The position numbers were made by a program, and so were the translations under genes. Source: a virus (taxonomy: Duplodnaviria > Caudoviricetes). Taken from it: DNA of 64,000 nucleotides. The stretch lies in IMG/VR virus record IMGVR_UViG_3300011008_002712, one strand, 5' to 3'. Every line of letters begins with the position of its first letter. Position 1 is the stretch's first letter. Below the pieces are notes generated by a model. It was not told the DNA's origin. It worked only from the letters and a program-made list of their open reading frames with translations, and did no database searches. Of this stretch, positions 22-37,466 are shown one piece after another.

Positions 22-846
22 CTATTCTGCTACTTCAATTTTAATCTGAAAACCTTTTTGATAATCAATTAATTTGAAATCATCTACAACATAATCGTAA
101 AAACTATCATGGTGATTAATTTCTAATTTTGGTGCCGGATATGTTTGACGTTTAATAAGTTCTTCAATCAAAGGAATATGCCTGTCATAAATATGGGCAT
201 CAGCAATAACATGCACTAATTCTCCAGGCTCTAAATTTGAAACATGTGCGAACATATATACCAGCATCGCATATTGACAAACATTCCATGCATTAGCTGT
301 TAAAATATCTTGGCTTCTTTGATTCAGAATAGCATTTAATTTATTTCCTTCTACATTAAACGTCATAGAATATGCACATGGATATAACGCCATGCTATTC
401 AAATCCTCAAAATTATACATTGAAGTAAGAATGCGTCTGCTGTTTGGATGATTTTTTAGATTATATAAAACATTGTCAACTTGATCCATTTCACCTTCTG
501 GGAATTTATATTTTTTCGCAAGTTGATATCCATATGCTGTTCCAATTGTTCCATCTTCTTTCATCCATGCGTCCCATATTTTACTGCCAAGTTCAGATAC
601 CTTATTTGATTTCTTTTGCCATATCCATAGTACCTCATCAACGCATAATTTCAATGGCACCGGTCGCAATGTCATAATAGGAGCTTCTTTGCTGAGATCA
701 TATCTATTTACTATACATGATTTTTTTATTGTATGAGCTGGAGTTCCATCGCTCCAATGTGCTCTTGTATCATTACTTTCATTGTAATATCCGTTCTTTA
801 ATATATTTTTACACATGTCTATAAAAATATTATCAAATTGGCTCAA
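22..846 (-). CDS. thyA: Thymidylate synthase (canonical dUMP type)
   Basis: MALYPCAY catalytic Cys; QRSQD..ANAWN with Asn at the dUMP-specificity position; DAHIYDRH. Confidence 0.95.
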   Translation of the reverse strand: MSQFDNIFIDMCKNILKNGYYNESNDTRAHWSDGTPAHTIKKSCIVNRYDLSKEAPIMTLRPVPLKLCVDEVLWIWQKKSNKVSELGSKIWDAWMKEDGTIGTAYGYQLAKKYKFPEGEMDQVDNVLYNLKNHPNSRRILTSMYNFEDLNSMALYPCAYSMTFNVEGNKLNAILNQRSQDILTANAWNVCQYAMLVYMFAHVSNLEPGELVHVIADAHIYDRHIPLIEELIKRQTYPAPKLEINHHDSFYDYVVDDFKLIDYQKGFQIKIEVAE

Positions 847-14267: not shown

Positions 14268-14300
14268 AAGAGAGAGGATTTTTAAATCCTCTCTTGTTTT
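14268..14300. terminator. Bidirectional terminator between telA and dnaE-C
   Basis: AGAGAGGATTT/AAATCCTCTCT stem flanked by A and T runs. Confidence 0.7.
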
Positions 14301-16792
14301 TATTCATTTTCTTCTAAGTTATCGCCATTTATCCATTTTTCATTAATTTTTTTCACTTTATCATGGTCTATATATTTTGCACTCAATCCGCCATAGCCTT
14401 TATCTCCAGAAATAACTAACAAATTACCTTTTTTCAAAATATCAGAATTATTTTTGTACATATCATTCCACATTGTAATTCCGACAATTTCTAAAGGTGT
14501 TATTAAAATTATTCTATAATATTCATTGCCCTTTTTCGAACGTTTTTTAACAACTTCTTTTATCAATCCTCCAATTTCAATACTATCTCCATCTTTTATG
14601 TCTTCTAAAGACTTAAGATGCTTTTTGTTTTTAAACGGATGATCAATAAAGCTAATTTCAAATGTATCTAAATCATCAAGATAACATTTAACCTTATTAA
14701 ATTTCGTTCTATATATTTTTGTTTTTGCTTTAACAAATGCATGAACAAATTTATCTTTAACTTCTTCTTTTACTACTTCAAATATACCTTTTGGTTTGCA
14801 TCTTGTTTTTTCTACATCATCAATTATTTTCCCAAATTTTTCAAGAAATGGTTCTGGAACAACAACACAATTGGGATTCTTTTTTTCTTTAATAAGTTCG
14901 TCTTCCCCAAATGCATTTAAATATTTTCCAGCAACAGTTGTCAAATCAACTAAATAATTTGGTATACTAGTTTTTGAATTTGTCTCTTGATAACTTTCAA
15001 ACCATTTCCTTTGCTGTGCTCTATTCATATAAAGCAAACAACAATCATCTTTTTCTTCTACTTTTATAAATTCTTTGCATTTATCATCTACAATATCTTT
15101 TGGAACTTGCAATGGCAAGCTTTCAAATGCCCCTATTTGAATACATACATCAACATTTCGTTTATTGTGTCCTTGGCTTCCAGTTTTTTCAAAAAATTCT
15201 TGTATCGTTGAAAATGGTTGCGCATTCATAATGTCTGCTGCGCCAGCTGCGCCCAATCCTTTTATGCAATTCAATCCCATTCTAATAGAATTATTATCGA
15301 TATTTTCTATTTTTGCTTCAAACTTACTTGCAGAAATATCCGGCGGCCTAACATCAATATTAAATGCTCTTGCTTCTTGCATGCAATTATTAAAATGTTC
15401 CAACTTCTCATTATTAAATAACACAGTAAAAAACACTAATGGATAATTTGCTTTTACCCATGCACACCAATATGCGATGTACGAATAACATACTGAGTGC
15501 GATTTGTTAAATAAATAAGCACTATTATCAATGATAGCTTGCGCTATTGTTTTACATGCTTTTTCTGGTATTCCACGTGATAATCCAGTCGGTATAACTT
15601 CTTTATTAAATTTTTCTACCCATGGTATGTTCTTCTTTTTATCAGGTTTTTCAAGTGCTCTTCTATATATATCAGCTTCACCAAAGTCAATTCCTAATAA
15701 TTCAGCAATAAGTCCCATCACTTGTTCTTGATACACTATACCACCCATCGTGGGCTCCAATATTTTATCAAATGCTGGCCAAATTTTCTTTAGTTTACTT
15801 GGATCTTTTTTTGCTGCGCAATATTCATCTAACCCAGAAGTACCAGGTCGTATAAAAGCATTTACAGCCGATAATTCTTCCATCGTACGCGGCTTTATTT
15901 TTTTTATTACAGGAACAGCTGCCGCACCATCCATTTGAAACACACCACGAAGATATTTTGCGTCACATATTAAGTCCCAAGCTTTATCGTTATCTAACGG
16001 TATAGACATCTGTTTTAAATCTTTATGATAATATTTATTGATTAAATTTAACTCATCGCAAATAATATCCATTGTGCGTAATCTAAGTATATCGTATTTC
16101 ATGCCACCAATTTGCTCTATCTCATCTTTACAATACATGCTTCTATACCATGTATTATGTGATGAAGTTTCTACAGCCGGTGCAACTGGAGTCAAATCAG
16201 TTATTTCCATATTAGATGGAGTTATTACAATTCCTGCTGGATGTTGAGATACAGATTTCGGAAGATTCATAAATGTTTTCAAATAATCTCTTAGATGATA
16301 ATTTTCATATTTATCTAAGAATTCATTCACTTCTTTAACATCTTTTATATCATCAAATGTTTTTGCATCTTTGTCAATTTTTTTAGCTGCGAAATCAACT
16401 TCTGCAAGTGGAATTTCAAAAACTCTCGCAATATCTCTCAAAGCAGCTTTTGGTTTCATATATTGAAAAGTAGCTATATTACAACAATGATTTTTACCAA
16501 ATGTTTGATTCAAAAAATCATATATTTCATCACTTCTAAGATAGGAAGTATCTCCGTCAATATCTGGTACATGACCGACTCTACGGGGATTCAAAAATCG
16601 TTCAAAAAATAAATCATACTCAAGAGGATCTACTTGAGTAATATCTAGTGCATAATTTAAAAGTGATCCAGCACCAGAATTATGCACTATTAAACCGTCA
16701 ATATTATATGAATGTACATCTTTTACTTCTAAGTCGTAAACTTTCCCTTTGTATTGAAAAGTTTTTTTAGAAGTAAGTCTTTTATATTTCAT
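14300..16792 (-). CDS. dnaE: DNA polymerase III alpha, C-terminal half, fused to C-part of a split intein
   Basis: IntC ...VYDLEV..HSYNIDGLIVHN then SGAGSLL, FERFLNP, PDIDGD, QHPAG, KYDIL, GVFQ, FNKSH, C-terminal OB fold; AAAGGA RBS before ATG 16792. Confidence 0.95.
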   Translation of the reverse strand: MKYKRLTSKKTFQYKGKVYDLEVKDVHSYNIDGLIVHNSGAGSLLNYALDITQVDPLEYDLFFERFLNPRRVGHVPDIDGDTSYLRSDEIYDFLNQTFGKNHCCNIATFQYMKPKAALRDIARVFEIPLAEVDFAAKKIDKDAKTFDDIKDVKEVNEFLDKYENYHLRDYLKTFMNLPKSVSQHPAGIVITPSNMEITDLTPVAPAVETSSHNTWYRSMYCKDEIEQIGGMKYDILRLRTMDIICDELNLINKYYHKDLKQMSIPLDNDKAWDLICDAKYLRGVFQMDGAAAVPVIKKIKPRTMEELSAVNAFIRPGTSGLDEYCAAKKDPSKLKKIWPAFDKILEPTMGGIVYQEQVMGLIAELLGIDFGEADIYRRALEKPDKKKNIPWVEKFNKEVIPTGLSRGIPEKACKTIAQAIIDNSAYLFNKSHSVCYSYIAYWCAWVKANYPLVFFTVLFNNEKLEHFNNCMQEARAFNIDVRPPDISASKFEAKIENIDNNSIRMGLNCIKGLGAAGAADIMNAQPFSTIQEFFEKTGSQGHNKRNVDVCIQIGAFESLPLQVPKDIVDDKCKEFIKVEEKDDCCLLYMNRAQQRKWFESYQETNSKTSIPNYLVDLTTVAGKYLNAFGEDELIKEKKNPNCVVVPEPFLEKFGKIIDDVEKTRCKPKGIFEVVKEEVKDKFVHAFVKAKTKIYRTKFNKVKCYLDDLDTFEISFIDHPFKNKKHLKSLEDIKDGDSIEIGGLIKEVVKKRSKKGNEYYRIILITPLEIVGITMWNDMYKNNSDILKKGNLLVISGDKGYGGLSAKYIDHDKVKKINEKWINGDNLEENE
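16679..16792 (-). mobile_element. Split intein C-fragment (38 aa)
   Basis: Block F VYDLEV, block G IVHN, Ser+1; Lys/Arg-rich. Confidence 0.92.
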
Positions 16793-16879
16793 CCATATCA
16801 TCCTTTCTTCTATTTATTTTATAAAAATTATTTTCTTTTTATAAAGAAACATCTATCAATTTCTTGAAAATTTATTTTT

Positions 16880-20130: not shown

Positions 20131-20502
20131 ATGAATTTAGAACAACAAGTTAAAAACGCTGGTCCTCATGAATTGGTTTTAATGCTTTATGATGGTTGCA
20201 TTAACTTTATTGATAAGGGAGAAGAGGCACTCGTTAATAAAGACTATGAAACATCAAATAATTTTCTTCAAAGAGCAGAAAATATTTTGACAGAACTTAC
20301 TATCAATCTCGATATGAAGTATGATATTTCTAAACAATTATCTTCTCTTTATTGTTATGCTTATGATCGTTTAGTAGAAGGTAATTTGTTTAGCAAAACA
20401 TCTCTAATTGAAGAAGCAAAGAAAATTGTTTCAGAACTTAGAGATGCATGGATTCAAGCAATTAACAAAGTAACTCCAGAAGAAATTGAAGCGTTCGCAT
20501 AA
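20131..20502 (+). CDS. fliS: Flagellin export chaperone FliS homolog
   Basis: A.P.ELVLMLYDGCI, RAENILTEL..LD, L.SLY.Y...RL, ELRDAW. Confidence 0.9.
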   Translation: MNLEQQVKNAGPHELVLMLYDGCINFIDKGEEALVNKDYETSNNFLQRAENILTELTINLDMKYDISKQLSSLYCYAYDRLVEGNLFSKTSLIEEAKKIVSELRDAWIQAINKVTPEEIEAFA

Positions 20503-30510: not shown

Positions 30511-32010
30511 TTAAATTTCACATATAACATCATTAATTTCTAACTTATCGGCTTCAATCCATTGAGGAATTCTTATGCCATTATCAAAGTCTTTAGCTTT
30601 TATTGCTAAGATTTTATGATCTTTTGTGACACCATCAATCATTTTATCTTCAATTTGAAGTTGTAATAACTTTTCGTCTACATCATAAATAAATTTATTA
30701 ACAACTTCATGAAGTTTTTCATCTTTAGCATAGACAAGCTCACCAACATTTACGTCTCTAATTTGTTTTAACCCATACTGGGTTAAAACAAAATTATTAT
30801 CTTTAAAGCAACCCCTTCCAGGACCACATGGTATTTTAGCTTTATTTCTAATAAAATCAATTAAGCTTCCATATAAAATGAAATATGTCTCAAATCCCAT
30901 CTCTTTAATGACTTTCATTTCATGTGCAGCTCTAATTCTATCTTTTTTTGATTGTGCTCGTTTTTTTGTCAACCCATTAAGAAAAAGATATTCAAGATAT
31001 TTAGTTTTTTCTAACTCTTTTCCTCTAGATTCTTTTGATTTTTCTTTCCACTCATTATAAACACTATCATTTTTTGGTATTTCTACACTTGGCAAATAAT
31101 GAACGTCTGTAACAAATTCAACACTACATTGTTTTGCTATATCTTCAGAAAATTCAACAGCACTTAAAACCGCTTTTTGATCTAAAACTTCGTGACCAGA
31201 ACATTTAAATGCATTTAAAATTTCATCTTTTGTCATAATATAATAAGTATTCCCGCCATAAGTCCATCTATCTGGATTTGACATGACATCTTTACTCTGC
31301 ATGCAAAGAAGCACATCATGAGCTTCTTTGTGTTCTTGAGTCAAATAATGCGCATCTGTTGTAGCAACTAGTGGTATACCCATTTCTTTTGACAATTCTA
31401 TCAGCACTTTATTTACGATAACTTGATGTTCTATTGCTGTTGGCTGTATTTCTAAATAAAAATTACCATGAAATAATTTATGATAATATTCAATCCATTT
31501 TTTTGCTCCAACTATATCATCATTCATGATGCAACGTGGAATTCTACCAGCAATGCACGCAGACGTCGCTATTAAATCGTCAGTACCAATATCTTCAAGA
31601 CATTTATCGTCAATCCTTGCTTTATAGTAAAAACCTTTTGTTGCAGCTAAAGATGCCAATTTAGAAATTCTTTTATAACCTTCTATATTTTTTGCAAGAA
31701 TTATCATATGCTCATTCTTATATTGACGATAATGTTCAATGTCTTTATTATTCATATCATCTGTTACATAAAATTCTTCTCCAATAATTGGAATTACATC
31801 ATTTTTTTTAGCTTCATTATAATGAAACATAACAGCATATAAATTTCCATGATCTGTTATGCAACTATATACTTGGTGAGTTTCTCCAGTTTTTTTATTA
31901 AATTCATCTGTAATTTCTTTATTACGTCTTACTAAATCTTCTAACCTAAGGCAAGAATCCAATAAAGAATATTGAGAATGAACATGTAAATTGACAAAAT
32001 TATTGGACAT
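30511..32010 (-). CDS. dnaE: DNA polymerase III alpha, N-terminal half (PHP domain), fused to N-part of a split intein
   Basis: FVNLHVHSQYSLLD, ITDHGNLY, ATTDAHY, MGFETYF, CGPGRG then intein CFKDNNFV. Confidence 0.95.
   Translation of the reverse strand: MSNNFVNLHVHSQYSLLDSCLRLEDLVRRNKEITDEFNKKTGETHQVYSCITDHGNLYAVMFHYNEAKKNDVIPIIGEEFYVTDDMNNKDIEHYRQYKNEHMIILAKNIEGYKRISKLASLAATKGFYYKARIDDKCLEDIGTDDLIATSACIAGRIPRCIMNDDIVGAKKWIEYYHKLFHGNFYLEIQPTAIEHQVIVNKVLIELSKEMGIPLVATTDAHYLTQEHKEAHDVLLCMQSKDVMSNPDRWTYGGNTYYIMTKDEILNAFKCSGHEVLDQKAVLSAVEFSEDIAKQCSVEFVTDVHYLPSVEIPKNDSVYNEWKEKSKESRGKELEKTKYLEYLFLNGLTKKRAQSKKDRIRAAHEMKVIKEMGFETYFILYGSLIDFIRNKAKIPCGPGRGCFKDNNFVLTQYGLKQIRDVNVGELVYAKDEKLHEVVNKFIYDVDEKLLQLQIEDKMIDGVTKDHKILAIKAKDFDNGIRIPQWIEADKLEINDVICEI
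30514..30810 (-). mobile_element. Split intein N-fragment (99 aa)
   Basis: Cys1 CFKDNNFVLT..G.KQI.DV.VGE.V, block B TKDH, WIEADKLEIND then stop. Confidence 0.92.
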
Positions 32011-32078: not shown

Positions 32079-32420
32079 TTAGTCATCTATCCCTAAAAAT
32101 ACAAATCCGTCATGTTTTTTACAAAAATCAATTGCATATTCTGATAAATTGTTTTCACCATATCCAAAATCTTTTTGGAAAATTTGACAGTCTTTATCAA
32201 TATATTCTTTTATTTTATTATGCAATTCATCAGAATATTCACAATCGTTTGATTGTTCATATTTTGTTATATTAATTCCTTTTTCTCCGTTGCTAAGACT
32301 ATCATTCATAAGAATATAGTCAAAAACTTTCATATCTGGTTGATCAATATTTGAATTTTTTACTGCGAAAATATAACTAGAAGACGACGAATTGGTTATA
32401 AAATCTGTTCTAATTTTCAT
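32079..32420 (-). CDS. Conserved phage hypothetical protein (KIRTDFxTNSSSSS family)
   Basis: N-terminal MKIRTDFITNSSSSSY. Confidence 0.75.
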   Translation of the reverse strand: MKIRTDFITNSSSSSYIFAVKNSNIDQPDMKVFDYILMNDSLSNGEKGINITKYEQSNDCEYSDELHNKIKEYIDKDCQIFQKDFGYGENNLSEYAIDFCKKHDGFVFLGIDD

Positions 32421-32423
32421 GAT

Positions 32424-33410
32424 TCATTCCTTCAACAAAGATTTGTATTTGTTAAGAATATATATGAGTTCATTCGTAATGAATGGATGCAACTTGTTTA
32501 AAAATTTATTATCCTTTTTGTTTTTACGATAATTATATAATGCTAAAAATGCCGCATTTGATTTCCAATATGGAGAATCCATATCGTTCAACATTTTTAC
32601 AATATGAGCAAATTCTATTTTATTTGCTAATTTTCTTGTTGTTTGTTCAATATTAATGAATGTTTGAATATCATTTTCTGTTGTTGGTCTATCAAATACA
32701 TGACCTTCATATAAATTAAAATCTTTTTCATTCAATATGTCTTTACACCAATCGATTTGATTCATATACATGTGCAAAGAATCAACGACATGAGTATAAA
32801 TACCAACTTTTACATTCAATTTACTAGCCATAATAACTTGCAAACTTGTAAAATTAAACACATCATAAGGATATCCAAACATAATATCATTACTTCTCAT
32901 AAAAACAATCATATTTAATTTATTGTTTCTTATTGAGAATCTCATTAAATTAGTACATGGTTTATCTTTTGTTTTTAAAAAATCTAATGATGGATCAAAT
33001 AACACTATCGTTCCCTGGCGAGATTCTGGATCTTCTTTTAGAAGTTCAACAACTTTATCAAACTGATTAATGTGCTTACTACCATAATCGAAAATACGTT
33101 TACCGTAAGCGCCGTTCAACGTCTTTCCATCATCACTAAAATTACTCCAATTTTTGTTATACCAACAAATATGATTCATGTCGTCACTTTTTTGCAAAAT
33201 CCAAGTTAATTCACCTAACATAAAACCATAATTAAGCTTTCTAGCATCACTGTAGATGATATTTTCCAATGGATTATTAATAGTTATAGATACTGGAGAA
33301 AGTTCCAACGTTTCTAATCCTCTTGGTGATATTCTTTTTCCGCCTTCCAATATAGCTGAAATTAAGCATTTATAGGATTCATTAATATTATTAAAATTAA
33401 ATGAATACAT
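32424..33410 (-). CDS. Thymidylate-synthase-family dCMP hydroxymethylase (or methylase)
   Basis: NGAYGKR, DPESRQ, DKPCT catalytic Cys, MRSND.MFG.PYD with Asp at the specificity position, SLHMY. Confidence 0.82.
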   Translation of the reverse strand: MYSFNFNNINESYKCLISAILEGGKRISPRGLETLELSPVSITINNPLENIIYSDARKLNYGFMLGELTWILQKSDDMNHICWYNKNWSNFSDDGKTLNGAYGKRIFDYGSKHINQFDKVVELLKEDPESRQGTIVLFDPSLDFLKTKDKPCTNLMRFSIRNNKLNMIVFMRSNDIMFGYPYDVFNFTSLQVIMASKLNVKVGIYTHVVDSLHMYMNQIDWCKDILNEKDFNLYEGHVFDRPTTENDIQTFINIEQTTRKLANKIEFAHIVKMLNDMDSPYWKSNAAFLALYNYRKNKKDNKFLNKLHPFITNELIYILNKYKSLLKE

Positions 33411-33476
33411 TTTACCAACCTCCTTAATTTATTTTAAACAAAAAAAAAGAGGAAATTAATTCCCCCTTTTCATTTT

Positions 33477-34256
33477 TCAAATTTTAATAACTTGAAACAG
33501 TGTCATATCGTTAACATCAAGACAGTTATCAAAATGAACTACTTCTCCTGGTTCTATGCTCGATCCAAAACATCCTCCAGCTCCGTCATATATTGCAATA
33601 TATGAATTATTGTCATATACGATAACGTCACCTTCGTCTATGTCCAACAAATTACCTGAGAATGAATGCACTTTTTGTTGTAAATCATCTAATACTACAT
33701 CTATTGATGTTACATTTCTAACTAATTCTCTTTTTAAATCAGTGCTATAATAACTTCCAATAGATAAGACAATTTCAACATAATTTACTTTAGGATCAAT
33801 ATCAACAACTACTTCTTTTGCTTTTCGTCTCATATATCCTTTATATGCAAGACTTTGAAAAGTATTTTTTGAAGTATTAACTAATTCCCATTCATTCCAA
33901 GAATTAGAATCTTGGCTTCCTGAACGAAAATATAATTTATTGATTTTTGATTCATCTGTAATATCGTTTATTACGTACATGAATTGGAAACAGTATCTAT
34001 TTGCTGCAAAATGAATGATTGTTCCATTTGTGCAAAAATCTTCACTTATATTCATTTGAGGAAGAATTGAATATAATTGTATTCCATGACTTGGCCATAA
34101 TCCTGGCGAATCCTCATCAACAGTAATATCAATTGGGAATCTATCACTTTCAGTAAACAACTCATATAAATAATCTATTTTTCCTCCAGCTGTTTCTTTA
34201 AATTTATTCAATGAGTTAGAAATTTCAGCTAAAGAAAGTCCTTTATTTTCAGCCAA
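33477..34256 (-). CDS. Hypothetical protein with fibre/knob-like segment
   Basis: G.IIHF..YCFQ...LYFRSG...WNEWE resembles phage fibre knob modules. Confidence 0.55.
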   Translation of the reverse strand: MAENKGLSLAEISNSLNKFKETAGGKIDYLYELFTESDRFPIDITVDEDSPGLWPSHGIQLYSILPQMNISEDFCTNGTIIHFAANRYCFQFMYVINDITDESKINKLYFRSGSQDSNSWNEWELVNTSKNTFQSLAYKGYMRRKAKEVVVDIDPKVNYVEIVLSIGSYYSTDLKRELVRNVTSIDVVLDDLQQKVHSFSGNLLDIDEGDVIVYDNNSYIAIYDGAGGCFGSSIEPGEVVHFDNCLDVNDMTLFQVIKI

Positions 34257-34775
34257 TTATTTTTCACCTCTTCGAGTTCTTATGCAATTATTTTTATCGA
34301 TGAATTCTTGAAATTCATCTACATTAAGAACATCAATTTTTATACTTTTTAAAAGCTGATTAGCTATTTCATCATCTAATCCATGACTATAATCGCCACA
34401 GTAAACTAATCTTTTTATCCCTGCTGCAATTATAATTTTTGTACAATTTACGCATGGTTTACATGTTACATATAGTGTTGAATCCTTTATGTTTACTCCA
34501 TTTTGTGCAGCTTGTGCTATTGCATTTCCTTCTGCATGTCCAGATCTACATAATTCACTTCTTTCACCAGAAGGTATATTTAATTTGCTTCTTATACATA
34601 AATCAGGATTATCAGTGCAATGTTCTAATCCACTTAGTGCTCCGTTATATCCAGCGCCAAGTTGTATTTTATCTCTTACTATGACTGCGCCAACTTGTCG
34701 TCTTATACATGTCGAACGCGTTGCATACATAAACGCAATCTTCATAAAAAAATTGTCTAATGATTCTCTACACAT
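34257..34775 (-). CDS. dCMP deaminase
   Basis: RSTCIRRQVGAV, GYNG, HAEGNAI, PCVNC. Confidence 0.93.
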   Translation of the reverse strand: MCRESLDNFFMKIAFMYATRSTCIRRQVGAVIVRDKIQLGAGYNGALSGLEHCTDNPDLCIRSKLNIPSGERSELCRSGHAEGNAIAQAAQNGVNIKDSTLYVTCKPCVNCTKIIIAAGIKRLVYCGDYSHGLDDEIANQLLKSIKIDVLNVDEFQEFIDKNNCIRTRRGEK

Positions 34776-34776
34776 A

Positions 34777-35487
34777 TCATTCCATCCTTACAATTCTTTG
34801 AGGTTTAATAATTTTAGACTGTTCTTCAACATCTCTATCAATTGTAATCCAAATATTTCTTCCAATTATATCCGGCCTTGTAATTTTCGTAGAAAAATCA
34901 TCATCTTTTACAACATATAATTCATTTGCGTTTATATCTCCACGCGGAATTTTATCCCATCCATTAACCAATTTTCTTATCGATTCGTATTTTTTTATAC
35001 AACGTAATACTTTTTGAAAAGCTTTGCCGTAAAAAAGTCGTGATGTATTAATTGTGCAATAAGGAAGATGTTGTTTTGCAACAAAATTATCAAAATTCAA
35101 TCTTTCAATTGGATAATGTTCTGGCATTACAAAATCTTCTCCACGTTTTTCAATTCGTGACGTTATATCTTTAATTTTTGCAAAAACATAAACAAAAAAT
35201 GGAACATATTCAAGATCATATAATTTATTTTCAAATTCTAATAAATAATCTCCTTCATATCCTCTGAAAATTGGAGCATATATCCACTCTCCATCATGGA
35301 ATCTATCAAACAAATAACTTTTATCATTATTCATTTGTTCTACAAAATCAAAATATTGTTTCTTTCCATCTTCCATATCTTTAGGATTTGAAAAATGAGT
35401 ATCTATTAGTTCGGGATATTTCTTTTTTAGTTTTTTGCATAATGTCGTTTTCCCAGCTCCATTTACGCCAGATACTAAAATATTCAT
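34777..35487 (-). CDS. Deoxynucleoside monophosphate kinase (thymidylate kinase-like)
   Basis: P-loop GVNGAGKTT, FDRFH.GE.IY, RIEKRGE. Confidence 0.82.
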   Translation of the reverse strand: MNILVSGVNGAGKTTLCKKLKKKYPELIDTHFSNPKDMEDGKKQYFDFVEQMNNDKSYLFDRFHDGEWIYAPIFRGYEGDYLLEFENKLYDLEYVPFFVYVFAKIKDITSRIEKRGEDFVMPEHYPIERLNFDNFVAKQHLPYCTINTSRLFYGKAFQKVLRCIKKYESIRKLVNGWDKIPRGDINANELYVVKDDDFSTKITRPDIIGRNIWITIDRDVEEQSKIIKPQRIVRME

Positions 35488-35560
35488 TTATCTTCCTCCT
35501 TGTTACATTCATCACAAAAGCTTCTGCTATTATTTTAAGCAGAAGCTTTATTTTTTTTAT

Positions 35561-35971
35561 TTATTTACTATCATTTTCTTGTTCTTCTAGCAAATCTGGA
35601 CGTCTTTCCGATTCAGAACTAGACGTGTCCTTATAAGAAAAATCAATTTCATCACTATCAATTTCATCGTTAATATTTTTTAATTCTTCTTTTGAATGAA
35701 TTGTGTCATCTTTTAAAATTTTATCAAGATGACCTTCTAGTAAAATTCTATCGCCTTCAGGGTTTTGTTTTATGTTATTTTCATATAAAAAATATTGAAG
35801 TATGCTTTGATCCCAATTCGAAAAATGGTCTCTCATCCAAGTTCTAAATTTTTTCCCAATCTCGTCTGTTTCAACTGGATCATCTTCATGTATGTCCAAG
35901 CAATATTTCATTGTCAATATAATGCTTTTCCTTTTTCTTCTTGGTTTTCCAAGTCTTTTTATTTTTTCCAT
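35561..35971 (-). CDS. Hypothetical protein
   Basis: 136-aa ORF, basic N-terminus and acidic C-terminus. Confidence 0.65.
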   Translation of the reverse strand: MEKIKRLGKPRRKRKSIILTMKYCLDIHEDDPVETDEIGKKFRTWMRDHFSNWDQSILQYFLYENNIKQNPEGDRILLEGHLDKILKDDTIHSKEELKNINDEIDSDEIDFSYKDTSSSESERRPDLLEEQENDSK

Positions 35972-36044
35972 TTATTTCACGCTCACACTTAACTCTTTTA
36001 AATTAAATAAGGAAGAGCTTTGTTTTTAGCTCTTCCTTATTATT

Positions 36045-37466
36045 TTACTTATTTTTTTTCAATCTTGACTTTTTAAATTCTTTAATTTCAACTTCTTTAT
36101 TGCCGTCAAGAATAGAAAAAATATTTTTTTCATACATTTCTCTATAACCAAACACTACAACATGATCATCTTTATACTCATTATACAATTTTAAATATTC
36201 GTCTACATATTCTGGAGCAATAAGATGTCTAATAATATCTTCATTCGTCTTAAATTTCTTCTTATCTTTTCCAACATCAATAAAATCTTGTAACATTGAT
36301 GGGCAGATATTATCAGCGTCAAATTCCATTTTTATAACATTGAATCCATTATCAATCATTTCTTTTTGCTTTGATTCATTTTTAGAAATATCGATAATTT
36401 CCTTTGCTGTTTCTTCCAATTTTTCTCTATCACTAACAATCATAAAAGGATGTTCAATATTATAATTGTAAAATGTTTTTCCAGTAGAAGCCATAACATT
36501 ATGTTTCGCCCAATGCACATCAAAAACTGGAATAGCGCCATTTACTATAATTTCCATCATAGTATATTCCATACGATCGCCATATTCTTCTGGATGTTTG
36601 TCTAAATGGAAAAAACTACATCCAAACATTGTATTTGACATTTCCTGCATGGCTTCATCATGAATATATTCCTTATATACCTCAGCACATCCATGTTCAT
36701 TTACAATTGGGCCTTTCTTCTCACTTGTCATATCTATGCAATAGGGATTATCATAGATATCATCCTTTGCACCACGACTCTTTTCAATTCCACGTAAAAC
36801 TATCTTAAAATCATTATCTAGTTTTTTAATATGAGGAGCTAAAAACAACAGTCTATGCGGTTCTTTTGTAGATGTCCAACGGCCAATATACATAATTTTA
36901 TGTTCTTTACCAGGATTTTCATTACGATATTTTACAGCTGTTTCAAAATCAAGCCACAGTGGGATTCTTTTTACTCTGTTATCTTTCACTTTTGACGGAA
37001 ACATTTCATTCATAGCTCTATTGAACCAAGTTGTTGGCCCATATCCATAAATTGCATCCATATTATTCATAATTCCAACCATATATGGAATTTTGTCTAT
37101 ATATGTCTTATGAACCTCATGAATAAATCCAATTTTAACTGGATTATTTACTCCCATTATGATTTTATCATAAAAAGATTTAACGTATGAATGATCTGAT
37201 TTTGCATATGGATAACTAAAGAAAATAACAACATCTTTTTTATTAAGTGATTCTTGAAGATTATCTAGGTCTTTTTCTTTATATCCTACATAATCCATAA
37301 CATGTGCTTTATACCTAGACATCTTTTTTCCTTCATAAGCAAAAATTTCTAATTCTACTCCATTTCTATTGCACCACGTTTGAAGTTCTACGGCACATTT
37401 TGTTAAACCACACCCATCAATTGCTCTACCAATTACAAGCCCATACTTAGCGTCTTTATAATTCAT
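36045..37466 (-). CDS. agt: DNA alpha-glucosyltransferase homolog (T4 Agt-like GT-B)
   Basis: GRAIDGCGLTK, YIGRWTSTK, GIEKS, EMSNTMFG, MEYTMME..NGAIPVF match T4 Agt motifs ARGLEGCGVTK, WIGRTTTWK, GLERS, RMSKSGFG, LEYTHLE..CGTIPVF as recalled. Confidence 0.85.
   Translation of the reverse strand: MNYKDAKYGLVIGRAIDGCGLTKCAVELQTWCNRNGVELEIFAYEGKKMSRYKAHVMDYVGYKEKDLDNLQESLNKKDVVIFFSYPYAKSDHSYVKSFYDKIIMGVNNPVKIGFIHEVHKTYIDKIPYMVGIMNNMDAIYGYGPTTWFNRAMNEMFPSKVKDNRVKRIPLWLDFETAVKYRNENPGKEHKIMYIGRWTSTKEPHRLLFLAPHIKKLDNDFKIVLRGIEKSRGAKDDIYDNPYCIDMTSEKKGPIVNEHGCAEVYKEYIHDEAMQEMSNTMFGCSFFHLDKHPEEYGDRMEYTMMEIIVNGAIPVFDVHWAKHNVMASTGKTFYNYNIEHPFMIVSDREKLEETAKEIIDISKNESKQKEMIDNGFNVIKMEFDADNICPSMLQDFIDVGKDKKKFKTNEDIIRHLIAPEYVDEYLKLYNEYKDDHVVVFGYREMYEKNIFSILDGNKEVEIKEFKKSRLKKNK

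Follow-up and report, generated by a model that had tools for sequence, protein, structure and literature searches.

How might a jumbo phage protect its cytosines while encoding no recognisable deoxycytidine triphosphatase (dCTPase)? The question is posed by a 64,000-nucleotide stretch of DNA from a virus of the Caudoviricetes (the window; IMG/VR record IMGVR_UViG_3300011008_002712), contained in a 416,024-base virus record (G000; 30% G+C, estimated 99% complete). Clustered on the minus strand of the window, at the positions given by an earlier note on this DNA, are a second thymidylate synthase (TS) homologue, a deoxynucleoside monophosphate (dNMP) kinase, a deoxycytidine monophosphate (dCMP) deaminase and a gene resembling phage T4 α-glucosyltransferase (AGT); Pfam and PHROG matches recover this cluster as the earlier note had described it (Table 1). 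These four genes are likely to form an accessory module by which phage G-like jumbo phages resist restriction: they would make DNA with glycosylated 5-hydroxymethylcytosine (glycosyl-hmC), in which the predicted role of the sugar-coated cytosine is to shield the DNA from host cutting enzymes. Glycosyl-hmC chemistry is textbook, which limits the surprise. Among 50,697 phage records, the best match of synthase and transferase alike is phage G.

A predicted dCMP hydroxymethylase

The synthase, which carries the motif RSNDIMFGYPYD, was aligned with T4 gp42, SPO1 gp29, RB69 gp48, phage G gp319 and the SP10 and VPE25 enzymes. Aligned with the cytosine determinant of T4 gp42, Asp179 (position 177 in E. 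coli), is Asp183; SPO1 and SP10 have Asn at this position, as does the window's own ThyA (Asn188), in agreement with the Asp-for-Asn difference reported in the earlier note. Asp149 occupies the place of T4 Asp145, three residues before the catalytic Cys152 (T4 Cys148) and where ThyA has Leu; an acidic residue before the catalytic Cys is a hydroxymethylase signature (PMC6400193). Asp175 is retained, so the synthase is without the D169N change of RB69-type 5-hydroxy-dCMP synthases, which is diagnostic of such hydroxylases (PMC13326640). Arg131 and Ser173 form the deoxyribose-type pair, as opposed to the Lys133 and Ala176 of the MilA/BcmA type with its ribose preference (for this pair and the base-specificity Asp/Asn position, see PMC5175136). 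Glu67 and Tyr102 (T4 Tyr96) are also conserved. Because all four published diagnostic positions point towards dCMP hydroxymethylation, we predict that the second TS homologue is a dCMP hydroxymethylase. Its best sequence match in the PDB is MilA (E=6.5e-34), and the same D/C/D/D set is present in 39 of 39 distinct TS homologues encoded beside AGT-like genes, these homologues being related and not independent.

In the tree, the synthase clusters with phage G gp319, in a clade sister to the SPO1/SP10 dUMP hydroxymethylases (support of 100/96 in a first tree and 94/95 in a later one). A constrained tree placing the synthase in the T4 gp42 clade is rejected (p-AU 0.007), the grouping having been named after the first tree was seen. 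The description 'T4-style', used in the earlier note, therefore fits the predicted chemistry and not the ancestry, as the synthase falls outside the gp42 clade. The tree also suggests that the SPO1 dUMP hydroxymethylases are nested inside the dCMP enzymes, although this nesting is not established (p-AU 0.16).

An AGT-like transferase

The transferase matches the Pfam AGT family (E=1.4e-6, above the cut-off) and PHROG 2888 (E=1.9e-79), and shares 41% identity with phage G gp306, 39% with gp313 and ~17-19% with T4 AGT. The best structural match of its model (pLDDT 93) is T4 AGT, with a Z-score of 39.2 and r.m.s.d. of 2.6 over 382 residues, the next enzyme reaching a Z-score of 25.6; with Foldseek, the E-values are 1.7e-23 for T4 AGT and 3.5e-11 for the next-best family. 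Retained as Gly20, His116, Arg196, Glu300 and Glu305 are T4 Gly15, His114, Arg204, Glu306 and Glu311, of which all but the His bind UDP. By family match, fold and these residues the protein is an AGT-family GT-B enzyme, which we predict to α-glycosylate hmC in DNA.

A large uncultured AGT-like family (loci L031-L091) occurs with a gp42-like synthase and with HAD/kinase, nucleotidyltransferase and cytosine-C5 methyltransferase (C5-methyltransferase) genes; further sugars on hmC are likely in this family.

A module gained or lost as a unit

Sister phages were located via the two open reading frames (ORFs) that intervene between the four genes. Common to these phages is a backbone of the 136-aa ORF, a long ORF and dnaE-N, preceded in L190/L191 by a sigma-like gene. 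Missing jointly from the syntenic slots in three sister lineages are the transferase, kinase, deaminase and synthase (an absence established only at the locus itself or from a half-complete record), and in one such sister (L188:10425-14605) Dam-type and EcoRI-type methylases fill the kinase/deaminase and synthase slots. Because these lineages are without all four genes together, the four are one accessory module, which gut jumbo phages acquire or lose whole and of which the 136-aa and 259-aa ORFs are not members; the kinase is thus inherited together with the synthase.

Restriction-site avoidance tracks the module. Summed over CCGG, GCGC, CGCG and GGCC, the observed/expected ratio is 0.90 in G000, 0.88 in G001, 1.02 in G006 and 0.78 in phage G, all of them module-bearing, and lies between 0.68 and 1.58 in small module-bearing loci and at 1.09 in a T4 segment. 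Samples from module-less sisters score lower, at 0.02 and 0.04 (both from one lineage), 0.57 and 0.58. AT-only palindromes range from 0.89-1.01 in all samples. For GCWGC, observed/expected counts are 401/397 in G000 versus 29/85, 0/11 and 0/3 in module-less samples, all of which have zero GATC. The relaxed use of C sites is consistent with cytosine protection in module-bearing phages.

Proposed pathway and points against it

From the genes, residues, fold, co-inheritance and site usage observed here, we infer the catalytic steps, sugar, linkage, extent of substitution and methyltransferase role. The synthase would hydroxymethylate dCMP with methylene-tetrahydrofolate (methylene-THF). The phage kinase, predicted to accept the resulting hmdCMP as the counterpart of T4 gp1, would act with the host NDP kinase to give hmdCTP, which the split DnaE would incorporate, and the AGT-like enzyme would then add a sugar to hmC in DNA by an α linkage, in all likelihood a hexose donated by a UDP-sugar of the host. 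The deaminase would feed dUMP to ThyA for dTMP synthesis, draining some dCMP; a canonical ThyA beside DHFR indicates that thymine is made by the normal route. The only DNA polymerase found in G000 is DnaE, whose two halves are encoded separately, each bearing an intein fragment where they join, with no A- or B-family polymerase (gp43 type) detected, in line with the earlier note's proposal of a C-family DnaE in place of the T4 B-family enzyme. Use of hmdCTP by the phage DnaE would have a gene-content precedent in VPE25. Residues, fold, co-occurrence and site usage support the anti-restriction pathway that the earlier note had drawn from dCMP through hmdCMP and DnaE incorporation to glycosylation.

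Several observations weigh against it. In the synthase, Gly replaces T4 Ser94 and Gln replaces Arg124, so that of the T4 water-binding pair Ser94/Tyr96 only the Tyr is kept (Tyr102); SPO1 gp29, a proven hydroxymethylase, is also without Ser94 and Arg124 (Ala and Gln). Two of the three glucose-contacting His residues of T4 AGT (H114, H116 and H140; PMC6024577) are gone from the transferase, T4 His116 being replaced by Val and His140 by Tyr, and H114 alone is kept. No dCTPase was found in 99%-complete G000 in searches with T4 gp56, phage G MazG and the Pfam MazG, MazG-like, dUTPase_2 and PRA-PH families, extending to the whole record the absence that the earlier note had seen in the window. GATC is still depleted in module-bearing phages (820/1427 in G000, 6/369 in G001 and also very low in G006), and the contrast in site usage comes from three lineages without the module, possibly with different hosts. 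Finally, the AGT-like family need not always act on hmC, as the genome of Geobacillus phage GR1 encodes a distant member but no synthase of the ThyA family.

The GR1 gene (L002:10601-13374) adjoins nucleoside deoxyribosyltransferase, thioredoxin and HD genes, and its acceptor base may differ; a literature search returned no paper on this phage.

Sugar donor and alternative readings

Among NDP-sugar enzymes, no epimerase or NTP-transferase family match was found in G000, the UDP-glucose dehydrogenase (ugd) of the sister phages gave nothing beyond a single weak match of 14 bits, and GT1-like genes are limited to one; as no NDP-sugar enzyme was found, the donor must be a host NDP-sugar. Directly upstream of the transferase in three sister phages are ugd, a UDP-glucuronate decarboxylase gene (matching UXS1, E=4e-101) and galE (L008:6584-11419, L015:5446-11416 and L024:6659-11419). 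These phages belong to a sister clade (60-64% identical), and in exactly these three transferases His116 (window transferase numbering) is changed to Tyr and EYT to ECA or ECS; as the change is confined to one clade (100/100), it represents a single event. In retaining GT-B enzymes, this His contacts the sugar O6, which a pentose lacks; a literature search found no paper on which glucose hydroxyl AGT His114 contacts. As the window transferase keeps His116 and EYT, a hexose is favoured, so that the donor is likelier to be a host UDP-hexose, with glucose the best guess, and xylosyl- or L-arabinosyl-hmC is predicted for the cassette-bearing sisters. Within the same hmC pathway, a sugar other than glucose (pentose, galactose, N-acetylglucosamine or uronic acid from a host NDP-sugar) is possible, if on balance unlikely. 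It would fit the Val and Tyr at two of the T4 His positions, the sister cassettes, the many distant AGT-like genes that adjoin HAD, kinase and nucleotidyltransferase genes, and locus L019, which keeps the His yet has a UXS-like gene nearby and so also calls for care with the hexose inference. G000, however, has none of those sugar genes and keeps His116 and EYT, and the clade change occurred once.

Other readings alter the base or the acceptor. It is improbable that the synthase makes hmdUMP, directly or by hmdCMP deamination, giving DNA with glycosylated or phosphorylated 5-hydroxymethyluracil (hmU): its clade is sister to dUMP hydroxymethylases, the crystal structure of T4 AGT includes hmU DNA, and G000 has a stand-alone gene for the helical domain of a 5-hmdU DNA kinase (HMUDK; L009:5885-6823 = G000:164884-165822, Pfam E=6e-102), but Asp183 stands where SPO1 and SP10 carry Asn (PMC5175136), ThyA and DHFR are intact, the HMUDK-like gene is missing from phage G and G001, and the relaxed sites include T-free CCGG and GCGC. 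A non-DNA acceptor for the transferase, such as the cell surface or a protein, with hmC left unglycosylated, is very improbable. In its favour, GT-B enzymes act on a wide range of acceptors, T4 AGT is only distantly similar in sequence and the L020 homologue sits among capsid genes; against this stand the structural lead of AGT over the next enzyme, the gain and loss of the transferase together with the synthase, and its place beside hmdCMP synthases across distant phages. Barely credible is a flavin-dependent 5-hydroxy-dCMP synthase of the RB69 type or a dCMP methylase; these share a superfamily with the synthase, and RB69 gp48 likewise has the N177D change, but the synthase has Asp175 where RB69 has Asn186, and Asp149 where methylating enzymes carry Leu. 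A dCMP hydroxymethylase feeding a DNA glycosyltransferase remains our preferred reading.

Extent of substitution

The relaxed avoidance of C sites suggests some form of protection for most cytosines. As a dCTPase could not be recognised, part of the C is probably still incorporated unmodified, although a dCTPase of unrelated fold may yet be encoded in G000. The 136-aa ORF was ruled out as a new dCTPase, as it persists in module-less sisters; an Atlas search gave no useful match for it or for the 259-aa ORF. Also rejected as a likely dCTP sink was a dCTP-deaminase-like ORF (L010:1095-1655 = G000:344594-345154), whose TIGR02274 score falls slightly short of the cut-off and which, by alignment, appears to lack what we take to be the catalytic Arg and Glu, the reason for its rejection. 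A Ham1 pyrophosphatase gene follows this ORF. G000 also encodes one NUDIX and one HD-domain protein, and nothing ties either to dCTP removal.

Elsewhere in G000 is an atypical C5-methyltransferase homologue with CPC and ENAP motifs (L011:920-2146 = G000:273919-275145), which shares 45% identity with phage G gp301 and 67% with its G001 counterpart. This family is present in 7/7 transferase-bearing genomes tested and absent from the half-complete module-less one, and in distant phages it often adjoins the transferase; it goes together with AGT-like genes and hmdCMP synthases both in phage G-like and in distant T4-like phages. Because a cytosine methylase would be pointless were all C replaced, the simplest reading is that some C stays in the DNA and may be methylated by this companion enzyme. 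A two-tier scheme, in which DnaE takes both C and hmC, hmC is glycosylated and leftover C methylated to give mixed 5-methylcytosine/glycosyl-hmC DNA, with the sugar swappable via NDP-sugar cassettes, is tentative and rather unlikely as a whole.

Relation to known systems

The novelty in Bacillota phages implied by the earlier note goes too far. In phage G (Bacillus/Lysinibacillus), gp313, gp315, gp317 and gp319 are arranged like their window counterparts, with which they share 38-46% identity, and DnaE, a separate ThyA and the atypical C5-methyltransferase gp301 are present too. Phage G differs in having two AGT paralogues (gp306 and gp313), a sugar nucleotidyltransferase/HAD/kinase block (gp309-311) and a MazG-like gene, none of which is in G000. 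Its AGT homologues have been noted as uncharacterised (PMC6024577, PMC13216743), with gp306 awaiting biochemistry (PMC6024577), and its DNA runs anomalously large, which has been ascribed to base modification (10.1101/2024.12.16.628780); no report of the modified base was found in the searchable literature, which leaves out most subscription journals. The residues described here offer a prediction for this unexplained modification that is directly testable, phage G being in culture.

Glycosylated C is also already known from the Enterococcus phages VPE25/VFW, as shown by bisulfite, MspI and PvuRts1I (PMC4999554). They share with the window phage a Bacillota host (plausible for the window phage), DnaE (VPE25) and an Asp-type synthase with an adjacent kinase homologue, but are 86-kb siphoviruses with a BGT homologue instead of an AGT homologue. 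With the glucosyl-hmC system of T4 (gp42, gp1, gp56, cd, AGT and BGT), the window has in common the predicted chemistry, catalytic residues, AGT fold, deaminase and ThyA; it differs in the branch of its synthase, the lack of BGT and of a gp56-type dCTPase, the C-family polymerase, the single glucose-contacting His of three and the companion C5-methyltransferase. SPO1 and SP10 (hmU DNA) have the nearest characterised synthase relatives and share Gln at T4 Arg124, but carry Asn at the base-specificity position and modify T, not C. RB69/DLP3, which make arabinosyl-hydroxycytosine, likewise combine a TS homologue, kinase and DNA glycosyltransferase, but use a D169N flavin hydroxylase and an arabinose pathway, neither of which is in G000. 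The predicted glycosyl-hmC module is well supported, but it is no new gene set. Its predicted working resembles that of T4; as a variant of the phage G type, it has a synthase of other descent and DnaE as polymerase, comes without any dCTPase that could be recognised and is accompanied by a methyltransferase. New here are the joint module loss with site avoidance, the non-gp42 synthase ancestry, the genome-wide negative for sugar-nucleotide enzymes and for dCTPases of the families searched, and the C5-methyltransferase co-occurrence.

Gene layout and neighbouring features

Along the minus strand, the AGT-like gene is followed by the 136-aa ORF, dNMP kinase, dCMP deaminase, 259-aa ORF, second TS homologue and DnaE N-terminal half (Table 1). 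Relatives of the 259-aa ORF are longer (650-750 aa). At its C terminus, the kinase keeps what is left of a UDG-like domain, of which relatives have a longer version, with Thymidylate_kin and UDG both present at locus L022. A promoter scan was at chance level (65 found versus 66 expected).

Table 1 Positions of the pathway genes and associated features in the window
Feature	Position	Strand	Evidence or remarks
Predicted AGT-like GT-B DNA glycosyltransferase, 473 aa; orthologue of phage G gp306/gp313	36045-37466	-	Pfam AGT, PHROG 2888
Conserved 136-aa backbone ORF, outside the pathway	35561-35971	-	Present in sister phages without the four genes
P-loop dNMP kinase, predicted hmdCMP substrate	34777-35487	-	PHROG 761 thymidylate kinase, E=1.2e-18; 39% to phage G gp315
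dCMP deaminase	34257-34775	-	Pfam E=2.9e-23; 38% to phage G gp317
259-aa backbone ORF, outside the pathway	33477-34256	-	Homologue present in module-less sisters
Predicted dCMP hydroxymethylase, 328 aa; phage G gp319 orthologue (46%)	32424-33410	-	Thymidylat_synt, E=2.4e-32
DnaE N-terminal half (PHP domain), ending in split-intein N fragment	30511-32010	-	Pfam PHP, DNA_pol3_alpha, Hint; junction GPGRG/C
DnaE C-terminal half, beginning with intein C fragment	14300-16801	-	Junction HN/SGAGSL; matches phage G gp329
Canonical ThyA (Leu154, Asn188)	22-846	-	Alignment; adjoins DHFR, which lies just outside the window

Directly downstream of the synthase (window 32079-32420) is one of the many ORFs of G000 that start MKIRxDFxTNSSSSS, found at the same position in L008. 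Close relatives have an intein in their dCMP deaminase (L014:13959-14885 and L027:4239-5165), whereas the window copy is free of one. Elsewhere in G000 are a second cytidine-deaminase-family gene (L011:4354-4758) and an MT-A70 methyltransferase gene (L012:5748-6539). As the formate-THF ligase of G000 is closest to Selenomonadales proteins (62-64%), a host among the Negativicutes (Bacillota) is plausible. The ligase gene is intact (L013:860-2518 = G000:89359-91017) and its product could supply one-carbon units to both synthases. By eye, window 20131-20502 is FliS-like and G000:253070-254314 resembles an SLH-domain OmpM protein, both probably host-derived.

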